Of a stretch of DNA of 64,000 nt, positions 5,560 to 61,589 are shown piece after piece. This DNA is from a virus. Position numbers and translations under genes: made by a program. Under the pieces are notes generated by a model. That model did not search any database. It saw nothing but the letters and a program-made list of their open reading frames with translations, and was not told the origin of the DNA. The stretch spans positions 3,795 to 67,794 of the IMG/VR virus record IMGVR_UViG_3300020469_003811; one strand, 5' to 3'. The number at the start of each line of letters is the position of its first letter. The stretch's first letter is position 1.

Positions 5560-6624
5560 TTATTTGTTAGCTTGTCTACTTCTGATCATTGCTAAGATGT
5601 CGTCTGCTGATACTCCAGCGGCCGGTTTAGCTGTGTCAGTTGCCGTTGCTGTTACTGTTTCATTAACAGTTACCTGTGCAGGTGCAGGTGCTACTGGAGT
5701 AGCTACTGCTGGTTGTACTGCTGGTTGTACTGCTTCTGTTTGTACAGGTTGGGCAGGTGTAGTAGCAACAGGAGTTTCAACAGTTTTGTTAACTGTAGTT
5801 GTTGTACTAGCAGAGCTAGATGTGTTTCCACCTCTAGAATTAAAACCTGCTGGCTTATAGTATTGACCAAATCTATCTGGATCATACAGTTCACCATCTA
5901 CAGATGCTTTAAACATTTCTTGCATTACACCAAGTTCTTCTGCTGAAGGTTTCTTTGGCATAAAGTCTGAAAGATTAAACAAACCATACTGGTCTATAGC
6001 ACCTCTTTCTGATTCACTTAATGATCTTGCTTTGAACGACCAAGTAGATGTTGAATAATCTGCATAGCCACCTTTTTGTGTTTTAGTCAATTTAAAATCT
6101 CTACCTGATTCTAAATCAGTTGGTAGATCTTCCATATCAGGATTCATTAATGCTGATCTGATAATGTTAAAGATTGACGGATTAATCACAAAACGTCTAA
6201 TTGGATTTTCCGGTGTCTCTTGTTCGTCTAATGTAGAATTAACTACATAACCTTGGAAAATGTAACTTCTTTTTTTCCAATATTTTCTTCCCATATCTTC
6301 TAGTGCAGGATCTTTAAACCAAGTCCTTACTTCAGATAAAATTGGGCATGGTTCATTAAACATCTCCATACAAGGAATTTGTACTAGAGTAGGTTTTGTA
6401 TCTTGTGAACCTTTAATACCAGGAAATGGTAATTTGATCATAGCTCTTTCTTGCCAAAAGAATGTATTATCTTTATTGCCGTCTGGTAAAAATCTTAGTG
6501 TTGATGTTGTGCCTTCTGGAATATTCCAGAATGGATAAATTGCATTATCCCCTACTGTGCTACCACCTTTTTGTTTTGTTTCTTGTTCTGATAGCTTCGC
6601 TCTTATTTCTGCTAAAGTCGCCAT
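5560..6624 (-). CDS. gp32: single-stranded DNA-binding protein (T4 gp32-like)
   Basis: LRFLPD, CPI, YWKKRSY, GRDFKL.K...YADYS.S motifs; low-complexity C-terminal linker. Confidence 0.85.
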   Translation of the reverse strand: MATLAEIRAKLSEQETKQKGGSTVGDNAIYPFWNIPEGTTSTLRFLPDGNKDNTFFWQERAMIKLPFPGIKGSQDTKPTLVQIPCMEMFNEPCPILSEVRTWFKDPALEDMGRKYWKKRSYIFQGYVVNSTLDEQETPENPIRRFVINPSIFNIIRSALMNPDMEDLPTDLESGRDFKLTKTQKGGYADYSTSTWSFKARSLSESERGAIDQYGLFNLSDFMPKKPSAEELGVMQEMFKASVDGELYDPDRFGQYYKPAGFNSRGGNTSSSASTTTTVNKTVETPVATTPAQPVQTEAVQPAVQPAVATPVAPAPAQVTVNETVTATATDTAKPAAGVSADDILAMIRSRQANK

Positions 6625-6637
6625 ATTATTTCTCCTT

Positions 6638-6730
6638 TGCCTATATTAGCCTTTGTTAGCCTTTGTTAGCCTATGTTTGCCTATGTTTGTATATAATAGT
6701 GTTCAATATCATTACTAACATTAAACACTA
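6638..6730 (-). promoter_or_regulatory. gp32 leader: 15-bp GNRA-capped hairpin followed by ~5 tandem 10-nt repeats up to the SD; putative autogenous translational operator
   Basis: Minus strand TAGTGTTTAATGTTA-GTAA-TGATATTGAACACTA (6730-6697), then ACAAACAT AGGCAAACAT AGGCTAACAA AGGCTAACAA AGGCTAATAT AGGCAAAGGAG. Confidence 0.65.
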
Positions 6731-6758
6731 GTATATCTATTTATGACGGAAATGTCAA
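6730..6758 (-). promoter_or_regulatory. sigma70-type promoter for gp32, with embedded late-type ATAAATA
   Basis: TTGACA-17 bp-TATACT. Confidence 0.75.
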
Positions 6759-6767
6759 CCTAAAAAA

Positions 6768-8633
6768 TTAAAAGTTCTTTTTAAAGGTTAACATAAAATT
6801 ACGTCCATCTTGGTTATATCCGTCTGGTCTTTCATACGTTTTGTCTGTTATATTGTTTAAAGACAACACAATATTGGTATCTTTTGCTACTTCATATTTG
6901 GTATGAAAATTGGCTACGCCTACTGCTGGTTTAGTAATTGTAGCATAAGTTGATGAATCAATGTCTAGATGTTCTCCCATATACACATATTCAAGTGAAT
7001 TGTTTGATTTACCTAGTATCCAATCAACTGCTGAAAATGATTGCCACCTAGGTCTTCTTGTAACTTGTTTGTTATTGCTGTCTTGTGCAATCGTCCAAGT
7101 CAATCCATTTCTAAGAAATACATTTTCATTTATCGTTGATGTTGTTTTTATTTCAGCACCATGTCTATTGGATTTGCCTGATGCATTAGAATATGTACTA
7201 TTACCATATGTGATCATATTATCTAAGTCTGTATCAAAATATACAAAGTCCAACGAATGATTGTTAAACTTATATTCAAACCCTATATCAATTGTTTGTG
7301 CTTCTTCTGGTTGTAAGTTAGCATTACCACTGTAACCATAGCTGTCTGCCCCGTACAGTTCGTATAACGTAGGTGTTTTTACTGCTGTTGTGTAATTACT
7401 TTTTAATTTAAAGTTATTTGTTACGGTATATACTCCACCCAATCTATAAGTTGTGTAGTCGCCAAACAAACTTGGATTGTCATGTCTTATACCTATTGAG
7501 TATAAAAAGTCTTCTCCAACATTGACATTACTGTTTAAAAAAACAGATGCATTGTTTCCTTCTTTGTCTACAGATGATGTGTATGAACCTGTGTTATTAA
7601 ACGTACCGTCAAACTGTTCATATTCAATTCCTGGGGTAAAATCAATTTCTTCATTTTGTATTGTGTTAGTAAAAATAAAAGTATTTGAATTGGAATCATA
7701 TGTATCAATTTCAGTACCATTAACATATTCTCTATCGTATTCTGTTCTAGAGAATGTAAAATTACTAAAACCTAATGAGTTATCAATTTTGCTACCAACT
7801 TGATAAAGATTCATATCACTTTTGGATGTGTAATCTAAGTCATCTGATGTGCCGCTGTCTAAGTCAGCATCACTAGTTCGTTTCATTATTGTGGTTCTTA
7901 AATCAAAACCATCATATTTACTTTCAGTATCTAATGTAAAATTGTTTGCATCAAATCCGTCTTTTTCAGTTCCAGTTGGTGCAACTGATATACCATCAGA
8001 TGTTGTTCCATCTGCTGTAAAACTAATAGAATGATTGTTGATATATTTGTGTACTTTTAAAGTTAGACTTTTTGTATCGTTAGATCCTACAGTTGTTGAA
8101 ATTGAGTTTTCGTGTTTGCCTGTAGTGATAAAGTTAATTACACCACCAACTGCGTTTGCACCAAATAGTGTTCCTTGTGAACCTTTTACAACTTGTATTG
8201 CTGTAACGTGTTTGATAAAATCAGAACCTATGTCGTGCAATCCACCTGTTGTAGAGTGATCTTTTATTGCGACACCATTTATTGCAACCATAGTATGATT
8301 AGAATTAGTTCCTCTCATGAATACTGACGTTTGTTGTCCTGTTGATCCTGATTGTATAACTGTCAGTCCGGTAATTCTTTTAATTGCTTGTACTGTGTCT
8401 TGTGTGTTTGTGTTTTGTATTGTATAACTGTCAACGTAATCTACACTCATTGATTCTGTTGTTTTTGATGTAGGATCTCTTAATACGTAAACTGTTATAG
8501 TGACAACTGGTGTGTCATCTTTTTCATATAAAGATTCTGAATTCCAATTATTTGTTTCTTCTGCATTTACGGAATTAAAAATAAATCCCCATGTAAAGAA
8601 TAGTAGTATTACAAGTATTGTCTTTTTAGCCAT
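6768..8633 (-). CDS. btuB: TonB-dependent outer-membrane receptor, BtuB-like (cobalamin)
   Basis: Signal peptide, plug motifs MRGTNSNHT..INGV and VVKGSQGTLFGANAVGGVINFIT, C-terminal GRNFMLTFKKNF; downstream of a cobalamin riboswitch. Confidence 0.8.
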   Translation of the reverse strand: MAKKTILVILLFFTWGFIFNSVNAEETNNWNSESLYEKDDTPVVTITVYVLRDPTSKTTESMSVDYVDSYTIQNTNTQDTVQAIKRITGLTVIQSGSTGQQTSVFMRGTNSNHTMVAINGVAIKDHSTTGGLHDIGSDFIKHVTAIQVVKGSQGTLFGANAVGGVINFITTGKHENSISTTVGSNDTKSLTLKVHKYINNHSISFTADGTTSDGISVAPTGTEKDGFDANNFTLDTESKYDGFDLRTTIMKRTSDADLDSGTSDDLDYTSKSDMNLYQVGSKIDNSLGFSNFTFSRTEYDREYVNGTEIDTYDSNSNTFIFTNTIQNEEIDFTPGIEYEQFDGTFNNTGSYTSSVDKEGNNASVFLNSNVNVGEDFLYSIGIRHDNPSLFGDYTTYRLGGVYTVTNNFKLKSNYTTAVKTPTLYELYGADSYGYSGNANLQPEEAQTIDIGFEYKFNNHSLDFVYFDTDLDNMITYGNSTYSNASGKSNRHGAEIKTTSTINENVFLRNGLTWTIAQDSNNKQVTRRPRWQSFSAVDWILGKSNNSLEYVYMGEHLDIDSSTYATITKPAVGVANFHTKYEVAKDTNIVLSLNNITDKTYERPDGYNQDGRNFMLTFKKNF

Positions 8634-9133
8634 GAATAACTCCTTTTAGCTGTTTCATATATTGCAAATAATACAGAAACATATAAAATAGTACTCACGA
8701 ATGTATTTTGAAAAAATGGAATAGCCATCGTGTAACACATAACTAATCCTTCTAATGTTTTTGGATACATTGTTGACGTCAACCATACAGCAAAATTTGT
8801 TATCACATAAAACATTACTGCTGATCCTACTGATACTGATGCCAAATGTGTTAAGGATTTTTGTTTTAATGTTGATGTACTTAATAGTGTACATAACATT
8901 ATACTTCCATAAACCCAAAACATCGATGAATGCATACCCAAATATAAATCAGATATAAACATCGCCACTAGTGGAATCAACATCGCTGTATAAACATCAC
9001 GGATCATGTATGGCATGAAAACAGCCATGGCTATGATTGGTGTGAAGTTAGGTGGATGTGGTATCAATCTACTTAAAGCAAGAATGCCTGAGTAGTATAA
9101 TATCATTAATAATGTTTTTTTTGTTGTACTCAT
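8609..9133 (-). CDS. polytopic membrane protein, DUF6580/ECF S-component-like putative cobalamin transporter
   Basis: SRLIPHPPNFTPI, SD, TNFAVW, CYTMAIPFF motifs; about 5-6 TM helices; first gene under the riboswitch. Confidence 0.7.
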   Translation of the reverse strand: MSTTKKTLLMILYYSGILALSRLIPHPPNFTPIIAMAVFMPYMIRDVYTAMLIPLVAMFISDLYLGMHSSMFWVYGSIMLCTLLSTSTLKQKSLTHLASVSVGSAVMFYVITNFAVWLTSTMYPKTLEGLVMCYTMAIPFFQNTFVSTILYVSVLFAIYETAKRSYSWLKRQYL

Positions 9134-9184
9134 AACAGTTTTATTTACGTTTCCGTATTGCCACTGTTAACTTTACATTGTAGA

Positions 9185-9302
9185 ACTAGACTTTTCCAGG
9201 CCTTCATTCGACAGCGGACTGTACCGGGTGGCGCTCCGACTTTACGGTTCCTGGAAGAGCCAAGGAATTACACCTTGATTTCCCACCATGCATTTCGGTA
9301 CT
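9185..9302 (-). ncRNA. class II (AdoCbl-variant type) cobalamin riboswitch
   Basis: Minus strand GTACCGAAATGCATGGTGGGAAAT CAAGG-TGTAATT-CCTTG GCTCTTCCAGGAACCGTAAAGTCGGAGCGCCACCCGGTAC AGTCCGCTGTCGAATGA AGGC-CTGGAAAA-GTCT: GGGAA, T-loop hairpin, GCCAC box, closing GTACCG/CGGTAC stem, kissing loops TTCCAG/CTGGAA. Confidence 0.88.
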
Positions 9303-9313
9303 AATTATTCTTT

Positions 9314-9342
9314 AGTATACCTTTTTGTTGCTCCGAAGTCAA
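9314..9342 (-). promoter_or_regulatory. sigma70-type promoter driving the riboswitch-B12 uptake operon
   Basis: TTGACT-17 bp-TATACT ending 11 nt before the aptamer. Confidence 0.8.
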
Positions 9343-9343
9343 T

Positions 9344-9523
9344 CTATTTTTTAAATGGATTTAAGTTCTTAATTGCACCAGTAACTTTTTTTGATGTTCC
9401 TGATACTGCGCCTTTTACTTTATCAGTTGCTCCTGATACTGCGCCTGTTACTTTACCTTTTGCTTCATTGGCCATCTTACCAACATTTGGCATTTTTGGC
9501 ATTTTAAACTTTGGTAATTTCAT
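9344..9523 (-). CDS. small basic amphipathic 11-mer repeat protein (59 aa, not in ORF track)
   Basis: AGGAGAG SD; MKLPKFKMPKMPNVGKMANEAKGKVTGAVSGATDKVKGAVSGTSKKVTGAIKNLNPFKK*. Confidence 0.7.
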   Translation of the reverse strand: MKLPKFKMPKMPNVGKMANEAKGKVTGAVSGATDKVKGAVSGTSKKVTGAIKNLNPFKK

Positions 9524-9543
9524 AAACTCTCCTAAGATTTGGT

Positions 9544-11490
9544 TTATCTAATTCCTGATAATGCTACCATTCTAGCTAATTCATCTGAATGATGTGGTAA
9601 TTTATCTGTACCTTGCATATTTTCTGCATTAACAGTTTCCGGTGAAGCTTCTTCTTTTGACATTTCATCAGCAATTCTGTTTAACCAGTCTGGTTCTGAT
9701 GGGTGTCTGTCACCGTCTGATACATCTGCATATCCAATTGAGTCTGCTTCTTTTCTTAACATATCAATAATTTCTTCTTTTGATTTACCCTGGTAATGAG
9801 CATCTGTTTTGATTGAATCATGTACTGCATCTCTGTACTCTTCAAAATCATGCTCTAAATCTGCCGCATCATTTTCTGAAAAGTCACCTTGTGGTATATC
9901 ACTTGTTTCAACTGGTGCTTCTGTTTCACCTTCAGCTTCTGCTTTGTAGGCTCTATATTCTTGTGACCATTTAGCATGGTTATCACCTGATACACCATAC
10001 GCACCTTTGTTTTGAATTCTATCTTTTAATTGTGGATCATCAATTTCTTTTGATTTAATATCTTTTAACCAACTGTTGTAACTTACTTTTGGATTTACAT
10101 TTTTACCAATGTAAGTAAACTTGTCTTTTGCTTTAGCTAAAGTTTCAGCATCTTCAAAATTCATTGTATCTGAATACATACCTAAAATTCTATCGAAGCT
10201 TTCATCTAATTTTGATAGCTCTGGTAAATCTTTTGATTCATTACTAGCTACATCTTTTTGTTCTGCTGGATCTTTTACTTTTGCAAGAATTGATCTAATA
10301 GTTGCAACATCATCTTGCACCATTGGGTCTTTGTCAATGCCTGTTAGTTTGTCTGACATTCTAGCTAAGAATACAGAAACTTCATCGTTTTTAGCTCTTG
10401 CGGCTAAATCTGAAATCTTGTAAGCCAACTCAGCTTTGCTATCATTAAACTTCATTATGTTTGATGGTGCATACTCTGATTGTCCTGCTGATCTAGGATG
10501 CATTTCTATTGCACCTTTTTCTAATTCTTTTGCGATACGATTTCTTAATGACGCATTGTCATTGATTTCTTCATCATGTATTTCTTGTATCATTGGAAGT
10601 AGTTCAGCAACTCTGTTGTCCATTGAACTAACTGTAAATTTTTCTTTTAGTTTGTTTAGAGTGTCTTGATCATATTCTTTGCTTTCGTGTCTAGCAAAAT
10701 TTTCTACATAGTTGTTGTAACCTTCAATAGTAGTTAATTTTTTGATCGTTTCTCTTAATCTGTCTTGTCTTGTTAACATAGAATTATAAACAGAACCACC
10801 TTGTTCTTGTATTGCAGGAGAACGTCTCATTACATTTAATACTTCTCTGATCTTACTCATTTGTTCACTCATGTTTACAATACTTTGACCAACTTCATCG
10901 TAAAGGTTACCACCATTTTGTACGTGACGTGTCATCGCTCTTGCACCATTCAAGTGAATGAAAGGATATTTAAATCTTTCACCTTGACCGTTTTCAATGT
11001 ATAATGCTGAAATGTTTCTTGATCTTGCACCAGGAATTTCTTCATTCACTGGAGATCTGTGTTTAATTAATAGCTTGGCATTTTCTAGTTTTTGAGTACT
11101 AGTTTTTACCGTGCCTGCAATGGCTGAATAGCCTTCTGTTTTAATCTGTTCCATATTGTTATTTAACCTAAAACTATAATTTTTAGGCTTAATTTCCCTT
11201 CCAAATTCACGTAAATCAAAGTCTAATAAGTTATCTCTGGCTAATTTCTTTAAAGAAGCCACTGTAGATGCTACTTCATCTATAGATTCTGGTCCTTTAT
11301 GTAGCTTTACTTCACTATTTTCTATACTTAGATTTACCATTAAATTAGGCTCCTGTATATAAAAGAATCTTGCTTTTTTTGGATCAACAATTTCATTGCC
11401 ATCTTCTGCATCAAATAATTGTACAGAATAACCACGTCCTTTTAGAATACGAAATATTTTTTCAGCTACTATGTTATAATCTACTGCCAT
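9544..11490 (-). CDS. large hypothetical protein, probable head/core-associated
   Basis: 648 aa, late-type promoter, C-terminal LARMVALSGIR resembles the scaffold C-terminus IKRLAGLRS. Confidence 0.55.
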   Translation of the reverse strand: MAVDYNIVAEKIFRILKGRGYSVQLFDAEDGNEIVDPKKARFFYIQEPNLMVNLSIENSEVKLHKGPESIDEVASTVASLKKLARDNLLDFDLREFGREIKPKNYSFRLNNNMEQIKTEGYSAIAGTVKTSTQKLENAKLLIKHRSPVNEEIPGARSRNISALYIENGQGERFKYPFIHLNGARAMTRHVQNGGNLYDEVGQSIVNMSEQMSKIREVLNVMRRSPAIQEQGGSVYNSMLTRQDRLRETIKKLTTIEGYNNYVENFARHESKEYDQDTLNKLKEKFTVSSMDNRVAELLPMIQEIHDEEINDNASLRNRIAKELEKGAIEMHPRSAGQSEYAPSNIMKFNDSKAELAYKISDLAARAKNDEVSVFLARMSDKLTGIDKDPMVQDDVATIRSILAKVKDPAEQKDVASNESKDLPELSKLDESFDRILGMYSDTMNFEDAETLAKAKDKFTYIGKNVNPKVSYNSWLKDIKSKEIDDPQLKDRIQNKGAYGVSGDNHAKWSQEYRAYKAEAEGETEAPVETSDIPQGDFSENDAADLEHDFEEYRDAVHDSIKTDAHYQGKSKEEIIDMLRKEADSIGYADVSDGDRHPSEPDWLNRIADEMSKEEASPETVNAENMQGTDKLPHHSDELARMVALSGIR

Positions 11491-11506: not shown

Positions 11507-13114
11507 CTATATAATCATTGGCATAGGCACAATATTACCTTCACCATCTTCATCATCACGTTGTCCTAAACTTTGTTCAAATATAGGATCATATTTTGCT
11601 AAATTTCCGACTAATCTACAACACAGTAAACTAGCAGATACCAAATCATCATTTTCTCCTAATTTAGCTGAGAATGAATTTCCTTTTGCAACAAATACTT
11701 TAAGCTCTCTAATTAAGTTTCTACTATGTATTTGTAACTTACCTGTTTCAACCCAATTTTTTAATCTTGAACAAGCAGATAGTTTTGCTTTGTGTGTTGT
11801 ATTAAATCCTTTACGTTTATGTACATCACGTCTTTGTTGTCCAGCACGTCTAGGTTCATGTGTAAAGAAACCTGGAAATCTATCTTCACCCATTTCTTCA
11901 ATAGCAACAATGGCCGCTTCACCTAAAGTATTATTTTCTATAGTCCAATAAATTTCCGGTTGCGGTGTTCCTTGTTCTTTTAATTGAGTATCTAAATCTT
12001 TTAAAATACCTAGTAGTGTTCTAACTTGTCCTTGTACTGTTGTTTTGTTATGTTGCCATTCAGCTACCTGTGTAAACTCCGGTAAACTAAAAACTTGTAT
12101 TGCTGAATAATCTCCTCCTGTACCTAAACTAGGATCTAAGGCTACAACATAAGTGTTTCCTTTTCTAGGCCTTTCATACCAACGTACTTGACCTGTTTTG
12201 TATAAAGGATCTTTTCCTGCTAATGTGATTAATTTTAATCCATCGATTAGTGTTTCATCAAATGCGATAAATTCACAATCATGCTCACGTCTAAATCTTT
12301 CTTCACCTATTCTTGCACGTTCATCTTTGGCCCATTGTTCATCTCTATCTGGATGTTCTGACCAATGTACATTTATTGCTCTAAAGCCATTGATACCTGT
12401 ACCATCTCTAGTAGGTTGACCAAATTCGTCAACTTTTTTATTTGCACTTCTCCATAGTCCTGCAAACACATCGTCATCATTGTTTGGTGTTGATGTAATA
12501 ATACACTTACCACCTGTTGACAATGTTGGAGATAGTGAAGTCCAAAACTCACTGGCCTTCTGTTGTGGTTCAACGAATGCAAACTCATCCATGTAAACTA
12601 AAGATATAGACATACCCCTACCTGTTGTTTCAGTTGTGGTTTGTGCTATAATCCTAGAACCATTATCAAAATCCATTGATCCTTTATTATAACTTGTTAC
12701 TCCACATCTGATATAGTCAGGTGATTCTTCATAAGCAAATCTTACACGTTGCATGATATCCTGGGCACCTTGATATTTGTGTGCCGCAATCAATATTAAA
12801 ACATCTGGATGAAACATAGCATACCATAACAAGTATCCTGCCGCACAGGTTGTTTTACCAGTTTGCCTTGCACACATGGCGATTGCAAATCTATTATTAT
12901 TATATGTTTCTAACAATCTCTCTTGGTACTCAAATGGCTCAAATTTCATACGTCCTTTAGTAGGATGTTGAATCCACATATGATTTTTCATGAATTGCAA
13001 ATAACCAGTTTTCTTGTCAGCACATTGTTTTAGATCAAGTAACTGAGCTTCTGTATACTTGGTTTTTGCGTATGCTTTTTTAGTTAAATTTCCGTCTAGA
13101 CTTTTATGTACCAT
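11507..13114 (-). CDS. gp17: terminase large subunit (T4 gp17-like)
   Basis: ARQTGKTT Walker A, YMDEFAFV Walker B, ITSTPN, LDPS.G.GGDYS nuclease motif, NDDLV. Confidence 0.93.
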   Translation of the reverse strand: MVHKSLDGNLTKKAYAKTKYTEAQLLDLKQCADKKTGYLQFMKNHMWIQHPTKGRMKFEPFEYQERLLETYNNNRFAIAMCARQTGKTTCAAGYLLWYAMFHPDVLILIAAHKYQGAQDIMQRVRFAYEESPDYIRCGVTSYNKGSMDFDNGSRIIAQTTTETTGRGMSISLVYMDEFAFVEPQQKASEFWTSLSPTLSTGGKCIITSTPNNDDDVFAGLWRSANKKVDEFGQPTRDGTGINGFRAINVHWSEHPDRDEQWAKDERARIGEERFRREHDCEFIAFDETLIDGLKLITLAGKDPLYKTGQVRWYERPRKGNTYVVALDPSLGTGGDYSAIQVFSLPEFTQVAEWQHNKTTVQGQVRTLLGILKDLDTQLKEQGTPQPEIYWTIENNTLGEAAIVAIEEMGEDRFPGFFTHEPRRAGQQRRDVHKRKGFNTTHKAKLSACSRLKNWVETGKLQIHSRNLIRELKVFVAKGNSFSAKLGENDDLVSASLLCCRLVGNLAKYDPIFEQSLGQRDDEDGEGNIVPMPMII

Positions 13115-13590: not shown

Positions 13591-14685
13591 CTAATCACGT
13601 TTAGATATATTACAAGTTAACTTCCATTTACTATTTGAACATTTATCGTAACACAACTGCATTTTTAAACTTCCATCATTATTTCTTTTTTCAGTTTCCC
13701 ATGCATCAGTCATTTGTTTCCAAAGTCGTGAACTGGCAATTTCTTTTAATGAATATTTGGTATAGTCATTAAATCTTTTTTCAATAAAAGGTATCATCCA
13801 TGGTTCAGTTTTTTGTAACATAAGTTTAGTTGTGTCATATTCTAACGAATGCCAACAGCATGGCCAAACTCTACCATGTGAGTTTATGTATATTTTATTT
13901 TTTACAAAAGATTTGCATTCAATATCATTAGTTGGATTTTTTAAATCAATATTCAATCTACGTGCTTCTTCTTCAATTACTTTATCAACATCAGATGATA
14001 AAAAATTTCCTTCTTTTTCTCTTAATTCAATCTGTTCATCATCATAAATGTCGTCACTGTATCTGGTCGAATACTGAGGAAGAAACTTTGTAAATCCTAA
14101 TTTCTTAGCAAGTCTTTCTGCTTCATCTACTTGATGTTTGTTATGCTCAAAGACCAAATACTTCCAAGTAGCATCGCCACCAGCATTGATGTAGGCTTCA
14201 ACATTGGCTATTAGTCTATCCCAATCTACTCCTTTTCTATACAAGTGATTAGTGTCTTTTAATCCATCAATAGCAAAAGTCATTGTAGCTGGGTCACTGG
14301 CTTTTTGGCTTTCTTCTTTGCTGATTCTACCTGCTTCTTGCCAAAACTTAATAGGTCTAATACCGCCATTAGTTTCTACTTCTATTTTTCCAAAATTCTT
14401 AACACAGTACTCCCATATCTGTGGCAACTGTGGATGCATTATTACATCTCCTAAATTTCCAACAAACCAAAGCTCTACATCTTTTGATTTATTGCGGGAT
14501 GTAAAATCTAAATCTTCTCGTAATTGATTAAACACTTCAAACGGAATATGTCTCAAAGGCAACGACTCTATTGTTTTACTAGTGCCATGATCGTGTCTAG
14601 CACAATAAGGACATCCTGCATTACAATATGTTGTTGCTTCAATTTCAACTATTTCAATGTTGTTAATATCTATCTTGTTAAACAT
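13591..14685 (-). CDS. radical SAM protein with SPASM/twitch-like C-terminus
   Basis: CNAGCPYC, ETNGG, FAIDG, GRVWPCC and C..KC. Confidence 0.85.
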   Translation of the reverse strand: MFNKIDINNIEIVEIEATTYCNAGCPYCARHDHGTSKTIESLPLRHIPFEVFNQLREDLDFTSRNKSKDVELWFVGNLGDVIMHPQLPQIWEYCVKNFGKIEVETNGGIRPIKFWQEAGRISKEESQKASDPATMTFAIDGLKDTNHLYRKGVDWDRLIANVEAYINAGGDATWKYLVFEHNKHQVDEAERLAKKLGFTKFLPQYSTRYSDDIYDDEQIELREKEGNFLSSDVDKVIEEEARRLNIDLKNPTNDIECKSFVKNKIYINSHGRVWPCCWHSLEYDTTKLMLQKTEPWMIPFIEKRFNDYTKYSLKEIASSRLWKQMTDAWETEKRNNDGSLKMQLCYDKCSNSKWKLTCNISKRD

Positions 14686-17186: not shown

Positions 17187-17615
17187 TTACTTTATAGCAT
17201 AGATTGAGTCTTCATTCAAGACCCTAAATCTAATTCCTTTTCTTTTTGTCCATTCAGCCGCCGCTTTCCACTTTGCTTGATTAATTATAACATCAGCTTT
17301 TTCTTTTTGCGACTTAATACTTTCCATTGTTGTCTGACTTTTTGGTTTTATTTCCACCATCTCAGCAATTTTTTTACCACGTTTATTTACATATATCATA
17401 ATAAAGTCTGGAACATACATCGTCCACTTTCCTGTAAACGGATGTCTATATGGTATTCTTACCGGTTCACTTGCCCAACTTAAAACACTTGGGTGATTAT
17501 CACACATTCTCATAAATGTTGCTTCCCATCCAGATCTAAACCTAGGTGCGTGTTTACCTACATACTTTTGTGGGTTTTTTAAATTATATAAACCTTTATG
17601 AAATCTTCTAGCCAT
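17187..17615 (-). CDS. gp4: head completion nuclease (T4 gp4-like, TnsA-type fold)
   Basis: KNPQKYVG, RSGWE, WASE, IPY, YVPDF, EIKP, NQAKW.AA. Confidence 0.85.
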   Translation of the reverse strand: MARRFHKGLYNLKNPQKYVGKHAPRFRSGWEATFMRMCDNHPSVLSWASEPVRIPYRHPFTGKWTMYVPDFIMIYVNKRGKKIAEMVEIKPKSQTTMESIKSQKEKADVIINQAKWKAAAEWTKRKGIRFRVLNEDSIYAIK

Positions 17616-22883: not shown

Positions 22884-23029
22884 TTTGTATTTCTCCCTGC
22901 TATGTTGTATATGAGTATTTTAAAACCTATATACTACTTTTAAGTTTTACTATATTAATGTTAATATTTATTAGATATTGGAAATAAAGTGCGATTGTAA
23001 TCCACCTTTAAAGGTATTAAATACAAGTG

Positions 23030-23446
23030 ATGACTAAATTAGACGATAATAAAACTAAACACGTTAGACCATTGTGTACACGTTGTAAAACACGGCCTTC
23101 GGCTTTTAATTACAGACGTAAAGGCAAGATCTATTATCGTAGTAAATGCGATAGCTGTATAAAAGAAGATCTAGGTATGCGTACAGGTTTTAAATATTCA
23201 TGGGAAAAAAGTGGATTTAGAAAAAAACATATATGCGAAAAATGTGGTTTTAAATCTAAACATCCTTCACAAATGGATGTCTATCATATAGACGGCAACT
23301 TAAAAAATGCTAGTTGGAACAACTTAAAAACTATATGTGCTAATTGTAGTCGTATTAAAAGCATTGAAGAAGTTGGTTGGGCACAGGGTGATTTACAGCC
23401 TGATGCTCCGCCTGTTAGTAAAAAAATAGGTTTGAAAAAATATTAA
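23030..23446 (+). CDS. HNH/zinc-finger protein
   Basis: CTRC, CDSC, CEKC, HIDGNLKN...NL..ICANC. Confidence 0.7.
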   Translation: MTKLDDNKTKHVRPLCTRCKTRPSAFNYRRKGKIYYRSKCDSCIKEDLGMRTGFKYSWEKSGFRKKHICEKCGFKSKHPSQMDVYHIDGNLKNASWNNLKTICANCSRIKSIEEVGWAQGDLQPDAPPVSKKIGLKKY

Positions 23447-24884: not shown

Positions 24885-24913
24885 ATTATAACTTTTCCTG
24901 TTCTATAAGTCAA
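24885..24913 (-). promoter_or_regulatory. sigma70-type promoter, 5 nt from the dNMP kinase ATG
   Basis: TTGACT-17 bp-TATAAT-AAAAA-ATG. Confidence 0.75.
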
Positions 24914-24922
24914 CGACTAATA

Positions 24923-25336
24923 TTAAGCGTCATCTTTGTGTTTTGGTATATTTGCTACTGGAATACCTTCTTCACGCAACTGTTGGGCCTCTATGTCCGT
25001 GCATTCGCCATATATTTTGTCGTCACGTATGCCATTCATTGCCATCCTAGCTTCTTCCGGAAACCTGTCTCCTACATTTTCAAAGTTCTTTTCAATATAC
25101 TTGTTGAAGCTACGAGCCATTGTTTTCATTTCATGTTGTTTATTTTTAACAAAGTCTTTGCTGTTCAATTTGCTTGATATGTTTGGTGCCATTATACCTT
25201 TGGTAACATTTTTTGATTCACATTTGATACACTCTAGCAGATTCTTTTTTTGTAATTTTGAAAATTCTTTACTACTAGCAAACCAACTTTTGAATTCGTA
25301 TTCGCAGTCTTGACATATTAAATTATAATTTATCAT
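24923..25336 (-). CDS. DUF1178 family protein (start revised to 25336)
   Basis: MINYNLIC...FKSWFASS, C..C.S..V.K.IMAP, ENVGDRFPEEAR, IYGE, L.EEGI; TTGACA-16-TACAGT promoter 6 nt upstream. Confidence 0.8.
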   Translation of the reverse strand: MINYNLICQDCEYEFKSWFASSKEFSKLQKKNLLECIKCESKNVTKGIMAPNISSKLNSKDFVKNKQHEMKTMARSFNKYIEKNFENVGDRFPEEARMAMNGIRDDKIYGECTDIEAQQLREEGIPVANIPKHKDDA

Positions 25337-25377
25337 AATATAACTGTAGCACAATTATATATTTTGTCAAATGATTT

Positions 25378-29971: not shown

Positions 29972-30496
29972 ATGAACTATAAAGAACATATAATTGAAGT
30001 AAAAGATTATCCAAAAGAAGGTATTAGTTTTAAAGATCTTACACCATTATGGCAAGACAAAAAAGTTTTTAAATCAATGATATCAGATTTATGCAAACCT
30101 TTTGAAACATCAAAAGTTGATATTATTGCATCTGTTGAATCTCGTGGTTTTGTTACCGGAGCTCCCATGGCAGTACATATGAACGCAGGTTTTGTGCCAT
30201 TAAGAAAACCTGGCAAATTACCAAGAGATACATTTAAAGAATCGTTTGAATTAGAGTATGGATCATCAGAAATACATATTCATGAAGATGCTATTAGTAA
30301 TCAAAATATACTAATTGCTGATGATCTATTAGCAACAGGTGGTACGGCAATTGCGGCTTATAATTTAATTACAAAACATTTTCCTAATGCAAATATTGTG
30401 GGATTTAGTTTTATTGTAGCACTTGATTATCTAGATGGATTGACTGATCTACAAACTTTAGGAATACCAATACATTCACTAGTGGAGTACGCATAG
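29972..30496 (+). CDS. apt: adenine phosphoribosyltransferase
   Basis: DYPKEGISFKDLTP, ESRGF, RKPGKLP, LEYG, IADDLLATGGT PRPP-binding motif. Confidence 0.92.
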   Translation: MNYKEHIIEVKDYPKEGISFKDLTPLWQDKKVFKSMISDLCKPFETSKVDIIASVESRGFVTGAPMAVHMNAGFVPLRKPGKLPRDTFKESFELEYGSSEIHIHEDAISNQNILIADDLLATGGTAIAAYNLITKHFPNANIVGFSFIVALDYLDGLTDLQTLGIPIHSLVEYA

Positions 30497-31251
30497 TGAA
30501 AATAACAATAGCAGGTTATGGATATGTTGGAAAAGCCATGCATGAGCTTTTAAAATCAAACTACGATATTAGTATAGTTGATCCAATTATTAATAACACC
30601 ACTATAGCAGAAACCAATCCAGAAGCAGTAATAATATGTGTATCAACTCCACAAGGTTTACATGGCGAATGTGATGTAAGTAACGTTATTCAAGTTATCG
30701 ATGATACACCAACCAATGTGCCAATTTTAATTAAAAGTACAATAAGTTTAGAAGGTTGGCAAGAAATTATAAAATGTCCAGCACCTTTGCGTGTTAGTTT
30801 TTCTCCAGAATTTCTAAGAGCCAAAACAGCAATAGAAGATTGTTTGAACAGTACTACTATGTATATAGGACACGGTGGAACTGCATACTGGTCTGATATA
30901 TTTTTAAAAGCAAAGCCAAATTTGGAAATTAAAACATATGATGTTAAAGAATTAATACTAGCAAAGTATTTTAGAAATAGTTTTTTAGCAACTAAAGTTA
31001 GTTTTTTCAATCAAATATTTGACTTATGCAAAAAAATGAATATTGATTATGAACCTGTTAGACAAGTAATAACTGATGATAAAAGAATTGGCGGAGGACA
31101 TTCATTGATCACAGATGAGCGTGGCTTTGGTGGACATTGTTTTCCTAAAGATACTAATGCTATAAGTGAAACAGCTAAACTTTATGGTTCAGAATTAACA
31201 ATAATTGATGAAGCTATATATTATAATAAAATTATTAAATCACGCAAGTAA
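30496..31251 (+). CDS. UDP-glucose/GDP-mannose dehydrogenase family protein (short, lacks C-terminal domain)
   Basis: GYGYVG, CVSTP, KSTI, SPEFL, K..RNSFLA.KV.F.N, GFGGHCFPKD. Confidence 0.8.
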   Translation: MKITIAGYGYVGKAMHELLKSNYDISIVDPIINNTTIAETNPEAVIICVSTPQGLHGECDVSNVIQVIDDTPTNVPILIKSTISLEGWQEIIKCPAPLRVSFSPEFLRAKTAIEDCLNSTTMYIGHGGTAYWSDIFLKAKPNLEIKTYDVKELILAKYFRNSFLATKVSFFNQIFDLCKKMNIDYEPVRQVITDDKRIGGGHSLITDERGFGGHCFPKDTNAISETAKLYGSELTIIDEAIYYNKIIKSRK

Positions 31252-39952: not shown

Positions 39953-39981
39953 AGTGTAGCTGAATTACCAATATATGTCAA
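39953..39981 (-). promoter_or_regulatory. sigma70-type promoter upstream of portal
   Basis: TTGACA-17 bp-TACACT. Confidence 0.55.
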
Positions 39982-44138: not shown

Positions 44139-45602
44139 ATGACTAAGAAATCAAACAAAAATATAGATAAACCTATCTGCAACGCACCATTTACATCAGC
44201 TTATTACTTTGGGCTGAGAGGTAATTTGGGTTTTTGCTGTGCATGGGAAGATGACGAACAGCCGTATTACAAAGTACACAAAGACGGAGCTCCGGAAGAT
44301 TTTTGGACTAGCAAATACGCCCAAGACATCAGACAACAAATGCTTGACGGTGAATGGCCCAAGGGATGTTCTGGTTGTAAGTGGCACGTTGAACGAGGAC
44401 TAGAATCAGATATAGCTGGGTTTGAATCAATACCTGTAGATAAAAAAGACTTTGATGTTGTGTACGGAAATACCACACATAAAAAACCAGTGTATTTGGA
44501 TTACAGGCCAGACAATTTATGTAACTTGTCGTGTATACAATGTAGTCCCGCCAATAGCTCAATAATTGAAAACTTTGGAGACAAAGAAACATGGGGCATA
44601 GGTCAAGACACATGGCGTGGCTCTTTAAAAACACTTAAAGAAAATAAGGATAGACATCATGAAATAGAACAGTTTGTAAATGAACATCTTTTACATCAAG
44701 GATTGTTACAAATAAAAGTACTTGGTGGAGAGCCTACTATCAATGCTGGTGTGCAAAGAACTTTAAAACATTTGATTGATAAGGACTATGCTAAAGATAT
44801 TAGATTAAAGGTTACAACAAATTTTACTAATCTTAATAAAACATACGAACTGTTTTCTCATTTCAAAGAAGTTAGTGTAACTGCTAGTATCGATGGTGCA
44901 GGAAAAACATACGAATATGTCAGACACCCAGCCAAATGGAAAGTTGTTAAAAAAAACATATTGACTTTCATGGAAAAATATCTAACCAAGCCAGGATATT
45001 CACTTTCCGTAAACACCTGTATGATGGCCCACATGGCTTTTACGTTAACAGATTGGTTATCTGAATTGTCAGATATTTGGTTTCGAGAAAGACTTCATAT
45101 TGTGGGTAAACAAGGTATAGATAACTTGTGGGGAAATATTTCTATAATACCTGTACTTGAGCCTCACTCAACCATTAATGCAATACCCAGTAAATTCATA
45201 AATGATATTTTACATGAATTAGAAACATTAAAGAAAACACTAAATGGAAGAAACAAAACGTTTGTAGATGAAATAACTAAATTAGGCTTGAAGCCAAACG
45301 ACTGGCCGTACGTAGGCACACCAGACTACCTCATTGACAAACTGATAAAAGTATTTCAAGATCACAAGTATGATGAACAGGCTCACTATGCATGGGCAGT
45401 AATGGCCGTGGCACAGCACAACTTTAAAAATTGTGATCTCACAAAATTAGATCCACGTTTCCTAGAGATGTTTGATATGCTTGACGAAGGAACCGTGTTT
45501 ATAAAACATAAATTTTATTATCCAGATACTTACAAATCATGGAAGAAAAACAAAGAAAAAGATCCTAATTTTAAATTTTTTCCAACTGCAAAAAAGCCCT
45601 AA
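44139..45602 (+). CDS. radical SAM protein with N-terminal twitch-like Cys cluster
   Basis: CNAPF...FCC...CSGC N-terminus; NLCNLSCIQC; LGGEP; TTN; SIDG; YVRHPAKW. Confidence 0.85.
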   Translation: MTKKSNKNIDKPICNAPFTSAYYFGLRGNLGFCCAWEDDEQPYYKVHKDGAPEDFWTSKYAQDIRQQMLDGEWPKGCSGCKWHVERGLESDIAGFESIPVDKKDFDVVYGNTTHKKPVYLDYRPDNLCNLSCIQCSPANSSIIENFGDKETWGIGQDTWRGSLKTLKENKDRHHEIEQFVNEHLLHQGLLQIKVLGGEPTINAGVQRTLKHLIDKDYAKDIRLKVTTNFTNLNKTYELFSHFKEVSVTASIDGAGKTYEYVRHPAKWKVVKKNILTFMEKYLTKPGYSLSVNTCMMAHMAFTLTDWLSELSDIWFRERLHIVGKQGIDNLWGNISIIPVLEPHSTINAIPSKFINDILHELETLKKTLNGRNKTFVDEITKLGLKPNDWPYVGTPDYLIDKLIKVFQDHKYDEQAHYAWAVMAVAQHNFKNCDLTKLDPRFLEMFDMLDEGTVFIKHKFYYPDTYKSWKKNKEKDPNFKFFPTAKKP

Positions 45603-48341: not shown

Positions 48342-49421
48342 CTATTTATTCCAGCCGTACCTCTTCCAGCTGTTTGGCATCAATGCATTTAATTTTTCTT
48401 TATCTGGGTCTCCGTGTATAATCATATGTAATCTTGCTTTGTTTGAATTGTTATGTACCCAATGTATTGTGCCCACATTCCATATAAAAGCTGTGCCAGG
48501 TGCATACGGAATCATTCCCCAATCTTTAACATAAACGCCAGCACCATTTGGATTACTAATAGCTAGATTAAAACCCATGCATCTATTTTCAGCATCTTGG
48601 TGAGGTAAAATATATCCACCGGGTTCAATCCATGAAAATCTAATTCTAGAATAATTTTTTAACGGAAAATCATGCATAAAAAATCTTTTAGTTATTGGAC
48701 ATTCGTCTGCCAGTTCAGTCCAATCTGGTTTTGGTTTGGTTGGATATTTTGTTTTGTCAACACCAACATAGTCATAGCCAGATGTGATATCAGAAGCCAA
48801 ACCAAATAGTGTTGTTGCATTCCAAGTACCACCAGCTTCATCTGATCTATGCATAAGCGATTTGTTTTTTACATTAATGGCTTCCATATACATTTTTTCA
48901 TGCGGAACTTTTAAATCTAACTGTAGCCATGGGTATGGGCAGTCATCACTCTCAAACCAATTCCACAAATCTTTATCTTTTTTTGGAAAATTATATGGCC
49001 TTTCGATGTAAGCTTCTTTCCATAATTTTAACATTTTTTCTGCAGTCAAGTTTTTTACCAATTTACTATTAATATAATCCGAATTGTTATATCCTAAAAT
49101 TAATTGAAATATAGGACTTAAACCATACTTTGCTTCCAACGTAGGCATTCTTTTATTATCTATTTCATTAGGAATAAAGAAATCAATTTGTTGTTTTTGG
49201 CAATAAGACCTTACGTATTTGTTGATAGCAGATTCTCCTGGGTTACAAACGAACACCAAATCTTTCCCCTCAACAAATTTTGCTACAGAATTTTTGTTAT
49301 AAGGCATTTCCAAAAAGTCAAACTGAAATCTTTTTTCGTTTTTCAATAAATTTGCAATAGCCTCGCTCAACCTAGGACCTTCAATATGACCTATAACTCC
49401 AACTTTAATCTGCATAACCAA
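48342..49421 (-). CDS. Asp/Asn beta-hydroxylase-like 2OG-Fe(II) oxygenase with extra N-terminal domain
   Basis: RIRF..IEPGGYILPHQD ... HWVHNNSNKARLHMI. Confidence 0.75.
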   Translation of the reverse strand: MVMQIKVGVIGHIEGPRLSEAIANLLKNEKRFQFDFLEMPYNKNSVAKFVEGKDLVFVCNPGESAINKYVRSYCQKQQIDFFIPNEIDNKRMPTLEAKYGLSPIFQLILGYNNSDYINSKLVKNLTAEKMLKLWKEAYIERPYNFPKKDKDLWNWFESDDCPYPWLQLDLKVPHEKMYMEAINVKNKSLMHRSDEAGGTWNATTLFGLASDITSGYDYVGVDKTKYPTKPKPDWTELADECPITKRFFMHDFPLKNYSRIRFSWIEPGGYILPHQDAENRCMGFNLAISNPNGAGVYVKDWGMIPYAPGTAFIWNVGTIHWVHNNSNKARLHMIIHGDPDKEKLNALMPNSWKRYGWNK

Positions 49422-50058
49422 ATTTCTCCCAACTTCTTTCTAATATATCAATCCATTCTTTGTAATGTCTTTTACCATGTGCAATAATATGTAATCTAAC
49501 TTTATTGGAGTTATTAATAACTTCATGATGTTGTCCAACATCAATTAAAAATGCTACTCCGGGTTTAAATGGTACTGTGCCTTTGTTTTTAAAATTAAAA
49601 TCACAACCATCCGGATTATTAATTGCTATATTAACCGGCGTGAATGTTCTTTGTTCGCTGTCTCTATGCAAACTAATTTTTCCACCTGGTTCAAGCCACA
49701 TAAATCTTAGTCTTTTGTATTGTCTATATGGAAATTTATTTTTAAAATATTCTGTAGTAGTAGGACATTGATCAGCAATATCTGTCCATTTGTAATCAAT
49801 TTGATCTTCTGTTAAACCTTTGTTTTCTTCGTACTGTTCCCAAGCATTGGTTTTAGTAGAACTAATACCATGCAGGCAAAGACTAGACCAGCCGCCTCCC
49901 TGGCCATAATCTCTATGTGAGACAGCCTGATCTTTAACCGCTGATGCTTCTTTATAAATTTCTTCATAAGGAATATCATTAATATCTAGTTGCAAATACG
50001 GAATAGTTTTATCTTGCTCTAACCATTCCCAAATATCTTTGTCTGTGTTTGGGTTCAT
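49405..50058 (-). CDS. Asp/Asn beta-hydroxylase-like 2OG-Fe(II) oxygenase (start revised to 50058)
   Basis: RLRFMWLEPGGKISLHRD ... HEVINNSNKVRLHII; TAAATA-N5-ATG. Confidence 0.8.
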   Translation of the reverse strand: MNPNTDKDIWEWLEQDKTIPYLQLDINDIPYEEIYKEASAVKDQAVSHRDYGQGGGWSSLCLHGISSTKTNAWEQYEENKGLTEDQIDYKWTDIADQCPTTTEYFKNKFPYRQYKRLRFMWLEPGGKISLHRDSEQRTFTPVNIAINNPDGCDFNFKNKGTVPFKPGVAFLIDVGQHHEVINNSNKVRLHIIAHGKRHYKEWIDILERSWEKFGYAD

Positions 50059-50097
50059 ACACATATTTACTCAGTGCATGAACCCATTAAGTTAGTT

Positions 50098-53847: not shown

Positions 53848-53876
53848 ATTATAGTTGAAATACAACCTTTAGTCAA
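53848..53876 (-). promoter_or_regulatory. sigma70-type promoter for gp47-gp46
   Basis: TTGACT-17 bp-TATAAT. Confidence 0.75.
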
Positions 53877-61028: not shown

Positions 61029-61589
61029 TTATAATATATGATCAGCTATGCCAAGGTCAATCAATTGTTTTGCCGTAAAGTATTGATCACTAGGCGAATC
61101 TAATTTTTTCTTAACAGAAGCCATTGTTTTTCCAGTTGCTTCTTTTAATATTCTAAAACATCTCTCTTCACAATTATGGTTTTCTTGCATTTGAGATTTC
61201 ATATCATGCATTTTAGATTCCATTGCATCTGAATGCTGATGATTCATGATACCAGTATTTTGTCCAATATATCTTTCGCCATGTTTACCACAAGCAAATA
61301 TTAAAAAAGCGGCACTCATTACAGCACCAACTCCGATAGTACTAATGTTGTGATAGCTGTCTCTCATGACATCAATCAACGCAAACGACTCGTATAGATC
61401 ACCACCTGTTGAGTTGATATACAACTTTAAAGTACGTTTTGGTTTTTTATTTAGGTTAGCAGTCACTATCCATTTGATAGCACGAGCTATATTCTCTTCG
61501 CCAATTTCGCCTGATAGATAATGAATATCGTTATCAAGTAGCAACGACTCAATTTTATCATCAGCACTAAAATTTTCAAATTTCTTCAT
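61029..61589 (-). CDS. clpP: ClpP-like protease proteolytic subunit
   Basis: LYINSTGG, G.VMSAA (Ser), MNHQ (His), DQYFTA (Asp), GIADHI. Confidence 0.85.
   Translation of the reverse strand: MKKFENFSADDKIESLLLDNDIHYLSGEIGEENIARAIKWIVTANLNKKPKRTLKLYINSTGGDLYESFALIDVMRDSYHNISTIGVGAVMSAAFLIFACGKHGERYIGQNTGIMNHQHSDAMESKMHDMKSQMQENHNCEERCFRILKEATGKTMASVKKKLDSPSDQYFTAKQLIDLGIADHIL

Follow-up and report, generated by a model that had tools for sequence, protein, structure and literature searches.

A predicted cobalamin-riboswitch-controlled corrinoid uptake cassette in marine T4-like phage DNA

We analysed a 64,000-base stretch of viral DNA, hereafter the window, which comprises bases 3795–67794 of the 67,794-base IMG/VR virus record IMGVR_UViG_3300020469_003811 (CheckV completeness 18%). 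Between positions 6768 and 9342 its minus strand carries a compact cassette composed of a sigma70-type promoter, a cobalamin riboswitch leader, a gene for a DUF6580 membrane protein and a gene for a BtuB-like TonB-dependent outer-membrane receptor. All elements named in the original prediction, an earlier annotation made from the letters alone, were found where that annotation had placed them. Judged by its gene content, the carrier is an uncultured marine jumbo T4-like myovirus. The features of the cassette, from promoter to receptor, are as follows.

9342..9314, minus strand: sigma70-type promoter, TTGACT-17-TATACT, 10 of 12 consensus matches
9301..9221, minus strand: AdoCbl-II (class II, AdoCbl-variant; AdoCbl, adenosylcobalamin) cobalamin riboswitch aptamer, RF01689
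9252..9255, minus strand: L5 loop UCCA, one arm of the kissing loop, with conserved and covarying pairing
9219..9211, minus strand: segment X, GUCCGCUGU, candidate anti-sequestor that can pair with Y and whose last three bases double as the base of P13
9213..9179, minus strand: P13 hairpin of the regulatory domain, 11 pairs, present in the minimum-energy fold of the platform
9199..9192, minus strand: L13 loop, CUGGAAAA, loop of P13 and other arm of the kissing loop
9134..9168, minus strand: start-codon-proximal hairpin, AACAGU (9168..9163) with ACUGUU (9139..9134), present in the minimum-energy fold
9167..9160, minus strand: segment Y, ACAGUGGC, alternative partner of X or Z
9157..9146, minus strand: dispensable inner hairpin UACG-GAAA-CGUA, enclosed by Y-Z and replaced or deleted in relatives
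9139..9134, minus strand: segment Z, ACUGUU, abutting the AUG
9133..8609, minus strand: DUF6580 protein (PF20221), 174 amino acids, candidate inner-membrane corrinoid carrier
8633..6768, minus strand: BtuB-like TonB-dependent outer-membrane receptor, 621 amino acids, with Plug and TonB_dep_Rec barrel domains

Aptamer, kissing loop and expression platform

The predicted class II cobalamin aptamer proved intact when the Rfam AdoCbl-variant covariance model was run against it: RF01689 matches over its full length (model positions 1–81 of 81) and scores 93 bits where the gathering threshold is 36.5 (E = 1.9e-22), and viral relatives score between 71.7 and 85.1 bits. An alignment of 61 distinct leaders, to which all leader counts below refer, contains pairs changed on both sides in each of the helices P1, P3, P4, P5 and P6. 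Such changes affect 11 pairs and 83 cells, and none of 500 shuffles reached either number. In total 95.4% of cells are paired, compared with 26–49% when the partners are slid against each other. The leader has a G+C content of 0.43 versus 0.34 for the window, and structured RNAs are usually richer.

The kissing loop had been described as a six-base complement, TTCCAG in L5 with CTGGAA at 9199..9194. Its three-pair core is real, whereas the outer U-A pair is unconserved, being unpaired in 45 of the 61 leaders. Within the core, C-C-A of L5 faces U-G-G of L13; the two C-G pairs are invariant, and the third pair covaries, with A-U in 56 leaders, U-A in 5 and no leader unpaired. The swap from A-U to U-A is found in a group of four loci (L073, L075, L179 and L180) and once more in L101, which has a receptor with 95% identity to that of the window; this suggests to us that it has two or more separate origins. 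P13, which presents L13, is paired in 99.0% of cells, and seven of its pairs vary on one side only with pairing kept.

A linker of 87 bases separates the aptamer from the DUF6580 open reading frame (ORF) and contains two mutually exclusive pairings of segment Y. The X:Y helix has 8 pairs and is paired in 99.2% of cells, while Y, extended by one base, forms 6 pairs with Z that are paired in 100% of cells, with two wobble-compatible one-sided changes. In most relatives the Y-Z pairing also encloses an AGGA-like Shine-Dalgarno sequence. Because a terminator scan of positions 6400–9700 found none, control is probably translational. An AUG-UAA mini-ORF following P13 was considered as a further element and rejected, as it is unconserved and missing in L073, L164, L165 and other loci.

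According to PMC5028336, the env8HyCbl riboswitch forms its kissing loop only with cobalamin and its L13 holds the ribosome-binding site, so that repression follows; the RF01689 family is described there as preferring the small upper ligands hydroxocobalamin and methylcobalamin over AdoCbl and as repressing translation through the kissing loop. The phage leader shares with these riboswitches the full-length family match, the L5-L13 kissing loop and a purine-rich L13, here with a covarying pair. It differs in its viral carrier and in its longer relay, with L13 lying 60 bases upstream of the AUG and X, Y and the start-proximal hairpin placed between them. By analogy with the characterised family members, the ligand would be cobalamin and its binding would repress expression.

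The DUF6580 protein and the receptor

The DUF6580 protein matches PF20221 with 159.4 bits over residues 6–166 (gathering cut-off 27). An AlphaFold model built from 24 relatives (mean predicted local distance difference test, pLDDT, 83.5; predicted template modelling score 0.76) has the six-helix fold of the S-components of energy-coupling factor (ECF) transporters. S-components occupy each of the first 23 VIA-align rows (Z 9.7–13.2, about 150–164 of the 174 residues), among them BtuM (Z 13.0, root-mean-square deviation 3.1, 158 residues aligned), and the first row that is not an S-component has a Z of 7.8. Foldseek also ranks S-components first, with RibU at a probability of 0.99 but an E of 0.22. 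The predicted fold thus bears out the ECF-S-like character proposed for this protein. Searches against solved structures returned nothing with the single sequence, and with a profile they returned rows at E 0.6–1.2 only, including a weak match at E 1.2 to 6fnp_A, which we take to be ECF-CbrT. The ESM Atlas gave no usable match in named clusters outside PF20221, and the literature, in coverage that omits most subscription journals, yielded no function or mention of DUF6580. No ABC ATPase occurs among the Pfam matches of 61 window ORFs, although no search aimed at EcfT or EcfA was made.

As described in PMC6072759, BtuM is a solitary protein that needs no ECF module; its gene lies together with btuB, and the invariant cysteine of its loop L3 (Cys80) binds the cobalt. 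The phage protein resembles BtuM of Thiobacillus denitrificans in its small S-component fold and its genomic tie to a BtuB-type receptor, but shows no detectable sequence homology to it and has an invariant histidine rather than a cysteine in loop L3. Membership in the BtuM family itself was rejected, since no BtuM chain was found at E up to 10 with either the single sequence or the profile and the invariant loop L3 cysteine has no counterpart. Loop L3 of the modelled protein (residues 66–70) carries the invariant His68, and speculatively this residue could ligate cobalt. Other conserved features of the family are the invariant residues H26 and D62, the motif SR.IPHPPNFTP and the near-invariant C133. 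On the strength of the modelled fold we regard the DUF6580 protein as a candidate inner-membrane corrinoid carrier. Its ratios of nonsynonymous to synonymous substitution rates (dN/dS) are 0.057 and 0.091 against the two closest relatives.

The receptor ORF overlaps the DUF6580 ORF by 25 bases. Its product has a Plug domain (PF07715, 59.3 bits) and a barrel domain (PF00593, 119.6 bits), begins with a signal-peptide-like N-terminus and ends with phenylalanine, and would have a mature size of about 597 amino acids, in line with the full-length BtuB-like receptor that had been proposed. The best of 16 NCBIfam families is TIGR01779 (TonB-B12) with 225 bits, and the best non-B12 family reaches 94.5. 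Among solved structures, six BtuB sequences match best (E 1.2e-30 to 1.6e-29, residues 67–616), with CirA at 1.1e-15 and FepA-type receptors at about 1e-9. The original prediction had named clustering with iron or heme receptors as evidence that would speak against it; by these scores, the receptor groups with BtuB. The sequence DDTPVVTIT at residues 39–47, near the mature N-terminus, resembles the TonB box of E. coli; relatives have P-C-I-T-I-T at this place. The AlphaFold model of the receptor is poor (pLDDT 54.1, plug under 50). Its dN/dS values are 0.063 and 0.108 against the two closest relatives.

Cellular genomes lend independent support, as the pairing of a DUF6580 gene with a TonB-dependent receptor (TBDR) gene exists there too. 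In a sample of 301 alphaproteobacterial genomes, 11 encode DUF6580, and five of these 11 loci have a cobalamin riboswitch within 5-kb flanks. Three of the 11 (L096, L098 and L099), all from small marine Alphaproteobacteria, have the order riboswitch-TBDR-DUF6580; the riboswitch is of the AdoCbl-II type in two of them, with genomes of about 1.2 Mb, and a classical RF00174 aptamer in L096. The cellular order, TBDR then DUF6580, is the reverse of the phage order, and the cellular proteins are 24–30% (TBDR) and 36–43% (DUF6580) identical to those of the phage. Separately, a Pelagibacteraceae (SAR11-family) single-cell genome carries a B12-binding radical S-adenosylmethionine (SAM) gene, a TBDR gene and a DUF6580 gene together without a riboswitch (L011:4311-8371), among glycosyltransferase genes near lepA and pheT.

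Phage setting and conservation of the cassette

T4-type genes detected by Pfam and PHROG extend across the whole window and include gp23 (Gp23, 333.9 bits), the portal (Portal_T4, 361.5 bits), prohead protease, sheath, gp15, TerL, gp32, UvsX, UvsY and UvsW, together with gp46/47-like genes, gp5, gp25, gp53 and baseplate genes. No tRNA gene was found in the window. The nearest isolates are myoviruses of 280–490 kb, with matches of 69% for the capsid and 54% for TerL; they comprise PA5oct-like Pseudomonas phages, a Vibrio phage, Sinorhizobium phage Phosso and Agrobacterium phage Atu_ph07. The best-covered relative with the same syntenic cassette has 242,646 bases and is rated 55% complete. As had been proposed, the cassette lies between packaging and structural genes on one side and gp32 on the other, with the following neighbours.

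11507-13114: TerL
9544-11490: virion structural protein
9344..9523, minus strand: small Lys/Gly-rich ORF of 59 amino acids, the upstream neighbour, ending 2 bases ahead of the promoter
5560..6624, minus strand: gp32-like single-stranded DNA-binding protein, the downstream neighbour (phrog_1192, 220.8 bits), with UvsX, UvsY and UvsW beyond

The cassette promoter, predicted as near-consensus and confirmed as such, has a -35 element, TTGAC, that is invariant in 61 of 61 leaders, while its spacer is variable. The strict motif TTGACW-N16-18-TAYAMT occurs at five sites in the window against 0.75 expected, a number reached in none of 100 shuffles. All five are on the minus strand, each directly upstream of a minus-strand gene; besides that of the cassette they are as follows.

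6758..6730, minus strand: strict sigma70-type promoter before gp32, 11 of 12 matches
24885-24913, minus strand: strict sigma70-type promoter before a deoxynucleoside monophosphate kinase gene
39953-39981, minus strand: strict sigma70-type promoter before the portal gene
53848-53876, minus strand: strict sigma70-type promoter before a gp47-like nuclease gene

Because the strict sites are enriched and each precedes a minus-strand gene, gp32 included, the cassette appears to use the phage's own kind of host-polymerase promoter.

The same cassette recurs in related viral DNA. Fourteen IMG/VR contigs encode a receptor 51–100% identical to that of the window, and the riboswitch and the DUF6580 gene are present in 11 of the 11 that have enough upstream DNA. 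A metagenome scan found 206 relatives, of which 80 were kept; 75 of these 80 loci have the leader, the other five starting too near the receptor gene, and 79 have DUF6580. Three genomic contexts can be distinguished. Context A has the order radical SAM gene, TerL, structural gene, small ORF, cassette, gp32, UvsX, with an identical insertion place in the window, L003/L004, L070-L075 and 12 metagenome loci, and the small ORF is 59–96% identical among these loci. One context-A phage has a capsid 86% identical to that of the window and a receptor 51% identical, and from this divergence at a shared insertion site we conclude that the cassette is old in the lineage and evolves fast. Context B, represented by two viral contig types and two metagenome loci, places the cassette between a primase/DnaB-type helicase gene and an oxidoreductase or Pol III alpha gene. 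Context C comprises most metagenome loci, with a G+C content of 0.38–0.45, and its neighbours are genes for Hsp20, ClpS, ferredoxin, SufE, a SufT-like protein, ThyX, AlgH and PstS, a short UDP-glucose-dehydrogenase-like gene and B12-binding radical SAM genes. This context has genes 65–85% identical to those of two IMG/VR records, in which no T4-type gp23 capsid or TerL gene was found, and 31 of 33 proteins, from ORFs also without a Pfam match, hit no family in a PHROG scan. We regard it as probably viral.

In a receptor tree, 70 phage-type sequences form one clade (support 96 in the Shimodaira-Hasegawa-like approximate likelihood ratio test, SH-aLRT), separated by a long branch from four cellular sequences and one distant viral sequence, and the receptors of contexts B and C group together (98) in a clade that falls among three context-A lineages; the tree was made by a quick method and has long outgroup branches. 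A profile scan of genomes of 185,579 species (57 loci) found no full-length receptor copy above about 30% identity, the nearest approach being one 100-residue fragment at 56%, and a single-protein scan of these genomes found no relative. Megablast of positions 6000–10000 against phage records gave no match. G+C at third codon positions (GC3) is 0.20 and 0.26 in the cassette genes, against 0.16–0.25 in phage core genes.

Near-identical DNA is present, with at least half of the sampled words, in 14 DNA runs, seven of them labelled viral metagenome. Read continuity over both junctions, which the original prediction had asked to see confirmed, was checked with assemblies: contigs assembled from a virome and from an independent DNA run span both the gp32/receptor junction (6294–7372) and the junction between leader and structural gene (9165–10600), with 0–4 differing letters.

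Proposed function and its alternatives

We consider it likely, at a probability of roughly 70%, that the locus is a corrinoid uptake cassette which belongs to the phage, is repressed by cobalamin, serves both membranes and relies on the TonB of the host; that the phage senses and imports B12 during infection, as had been suggested, is well supported as a reading of these data. In the model that we propose, host RNA polymerase with sigma70 would start at the promoter and place the class II aptamer almost at the beginning of the transcript. When cobalamin is low, X would capture newly made Y at once and leave the start accessible, so that ribosomes could initiate on the DUF6580 gene and, by way of the 25-base overlap, also on that of the receptor. 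Placed in the outer membrane, the receptor would then import cobalamin with the host TonB-ExbBD, and the DUF6580 protein, as a solitary carrier of S-component type, would pass it over the inner membrane. With enough cobalamin, the L5-L13 kissing loop would be locked, P13 stabilised down to its base and X occupied, whereupon Y would pair with Z at the bases abutting the AUG and initiation would drop.

Several observations weigh against this reading or parts of it. In the expression platform, neither X:Y nor Y:Z has a pair changed on both sides, one X:Y pair is broken in 4 of the 61 leaders, and the isolated platform of the window prefers the Y:Z fold (-20.9 versus -17.0 kcal/mol). As the Y:Z fold is already the more stable one, a switch would have to be kinetic, and with all three points taken together the direction and mechanism of switching rest on analogy. 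At its distance from the AUG, L13 cannot be the ribosome-binding site as it is in env8HyCbl, so the platform must work differently. The locus resembles E. coli btuB in its cobalamin riboswitch leader, its Plug and barrel domains and its best sequence match to BtuB, but the phage receptor is only about 24% identical to enterobacterial BtuB, is encoded by a second gene behind DUF6580, and lies below the BtuB equivalog cut-offs (TIGR01779, 225 versus 599.7 bits; NF007926, 184.1 versus 836); its substrate could therefore be another corrinoid or something else. Searches with TonB_C, MotA_ExbB and ExbD gave no match in the entire 67,794-base record, which extends to the record the earlier remark that tonB and exbBD are missing from the window, and the receptor would consequently have to use the host's system. 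TonB_C and ExbD were likewise found in none of five viral records each. RNA-library contigs identical to parts of the cassette do not prove transcription: in library X15 5 of 30 bins are uncovered, the long contig of X16 comes from a relative of roughly 95% identity, and neither shows transcription or its absence. Finally, no B12-dependent enzyme was found in the record of the window, which represents about a fifth of the genome, although no search aimed at methionine synthase was made, PF02310 matches in none of the five viral records at E 0.01, and a 487-residue radical SAM protein of the window, tried as the consumer of B12, was rejected since it does not resemble the radical SAM proteins that bind B12.

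A MotA/TolQ/ExbB-family protein (35 bits) is encoded near an Hsp70 gene in the 242-kb relative (L079:1228-1830, record G001). It was rejected as part of a TonB system, as the next two single-pass membrane ORFs have no ExbD or TonB signature.

As to what the imported cofactor would serve, virus-encoded B12-binding radical SAM enzymes are most likely, although this is a reasoned guess given that the 67.8-kb record has no such gene. A B12-binding radical SAM gene lies directly downstream of the receptor gene in L142, and others lie near the cassette in L154, L137 and L106; in the cellular locus L011 one adjoins the receptor-DUF6580 pair. In the viral record L076 a distant TBDR gene (29% identity) is directly followed by a B12-binding radical SAM gene. 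The 242-kb relative encodes, elsewhere in its genome, a 598-residue homologue of the L142 protein (E 1e-38; Radical_SAM, 38.6 bits), with the B12-binding domain at E 0.036 only. The original prediction had suggested that B12 might support dNTP synthesis through the class II ribonucleotide reductase NrdJ. We found no ribonucleotide reductase in the record of the window, and the 242-kb relative has NrdA with an ATP-cone together with NrdB, a class Ia reductase rather than NrdJ; the NrdJ idea is therefore not supported.

The record with the L076 locus (L076:7980-11214; record G006, 137,583 bases) also holds genes for Hsp70, ThyX, SufB/C/D/E and a PurF-like protein. No capsid or terminase gene was found in it, and a sister record is flagged as a provirus.

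An explanation that shares the import step is that the cassette brings in cobalamin to keep host B12-dependent enzymes, such as MetH or a class II reductase, running during a long infection. The lack of a B12-dependent enzyme in the record of the window is in its favour, as are the riboswitch logic, which is that of cellular btuB operons, and the occurrence of DUF6580-TBDR operons in small marine alphaproteobacterial genomes. The recurrence of B12-binding radical SAM genes beside the cassette in related loci, with one in the 242-kb relative, and the B12-independent class Ia reductase of that relative argue against it, and we regard this explanation as unlikely. We give still less weight to a role of the receptor in phage-phage or phage-host conflict, as a surface decoy or as a replacement that blocks superinfection or colicin-like attack via BtuB, or to the uptake of some compound other than cobalamin. 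Phages are known to use BtuB as a receptor (PMC8624392, PMC10644984), the phage protein is only distantly BtuB-like, and between two syntenic phages it has diverged much further than the capsid, all of which would fit such a role; yet the receptor is accompanied by a cobalamin riboswitch and a carrier of S-component type in every viral contig with enough upstream DNA and in nearly all metagenome loci, the TBDR-DUF6580 pair is riboswitch-controlled in cells, and both genes are under purifying selection.

That the cassette is host DNA joined by mis-assembly, or a recent passenger useless to the phage, is highly improbable. Its genes are of a cellular type and its leader is richer in G+C than the window, but identical junctions recur across numerous independent contigs and runs, some of them from viromes, GC3 is that of phage genes and dN/dS is about 0.06–0.11. 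Neither the species genomes, with no full-length copy above about 30%, nor the single clade of phage-type receptors fits a recent origin from a host. Conserved synteny, contigs that span the junctions and purifying selection thus exclude chimeric assembly, which the original prediction had listed as a possible refutation.

A cassette of phage-owned corrinoid uptake would combine elements that are already known separately, namely riboswitch-controlled btuB operons, S-component B12 carriers, phage auxiliary genes and phage riboswitches. PMC9723777 reports a putative TonB-dependent receptor, annotated SusC, in marine megaphages, and PMC9004378 reports glutamine riboswitches in the Melnitz myophage and pelagiphage relatives, along with an OM43 host that has a cobalamin riboswitch before btuB. 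In the literature covered, which lacks most subscription journals, we found no description of a virus-encoded cobalamin riboswitch or of a BtuB-type receptor under one. More tentatively, and possible rather than probable in our view, DUF6580 would be a new family of solitary S-component-type cobalamin carriers that bind cobalt probably via the loop-3 histidine and partner BtuB-type receptors, and widespread giant marine phages would re-equip their hosts with the whole self-regulated B12 import route so as to supply virus-encoded radical SAM chemistry that depends on B12. On that reading, viruses would compete directly for a scarce ocean vitamin, and the marine AdoCbl-variant riboswitch family would be in part viral rather than bacterial.

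Seawater contains little B12, and most microbes rely on others for its supply. If our interpretation is right, a virus that brings sensor, receptor and carrier would alter the competition of infected cells for B12, and a trace cofactor would join the resources managed by phages. The metagenome relatives and the near-identical DNA in independent runs and viromes indicate that the cassette is common. It suggests a testable function for DUF6580, an uncharacterised family also found in bacteria, directs attention to radical SAM enzymes dependent on B12 as a hidden giant-phage activity, and provides a naturally occurring set of class II riboswitch leaders that show a compensatory kissing-loop swap and have a long conserved relay to the start codon.

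Some further features of the window were recorded. In the gp32 leader, between promoter and start, a 10-base unit (GCCTATGTTA, plus strand) is repeated 4.9 times at 6639–6687, with an 11-base insertion in one RNA-library contig; it may be a gp32 autoregulatory operator. Two radical SAM genes, at 13591-14685 (minus) and 44139-45602 (plus), one with a SPASM domain, are both unrelated to the B12-binding type. A short UDP-glucose-dehydrogenase-like protein (30496-31251, plus) is 30% identical to the product of the gene conserved beside the cassette in context-C loci. Two adjoining genes of the Asp/Arg beta-hydroxylase type (2-oxoglutarate-Fe) lie at 48342-50064 (minus), a ClpP protease gene at 61029-61589 (minus) and a gene for a DUF1178 protein at 24923-25354 (minus). 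A complete gene for ribosomal protein L11 (23483-23911, plus), with both Pfam domains at 100 and 90 bits, is adjoined by an HNH-like ORF at 23027-23446. An ORF at 17187-17615 (minus) has a TnsA-like endonuclease N-terminal domain (73.9 bits) and is probably a homing-type nuclease.

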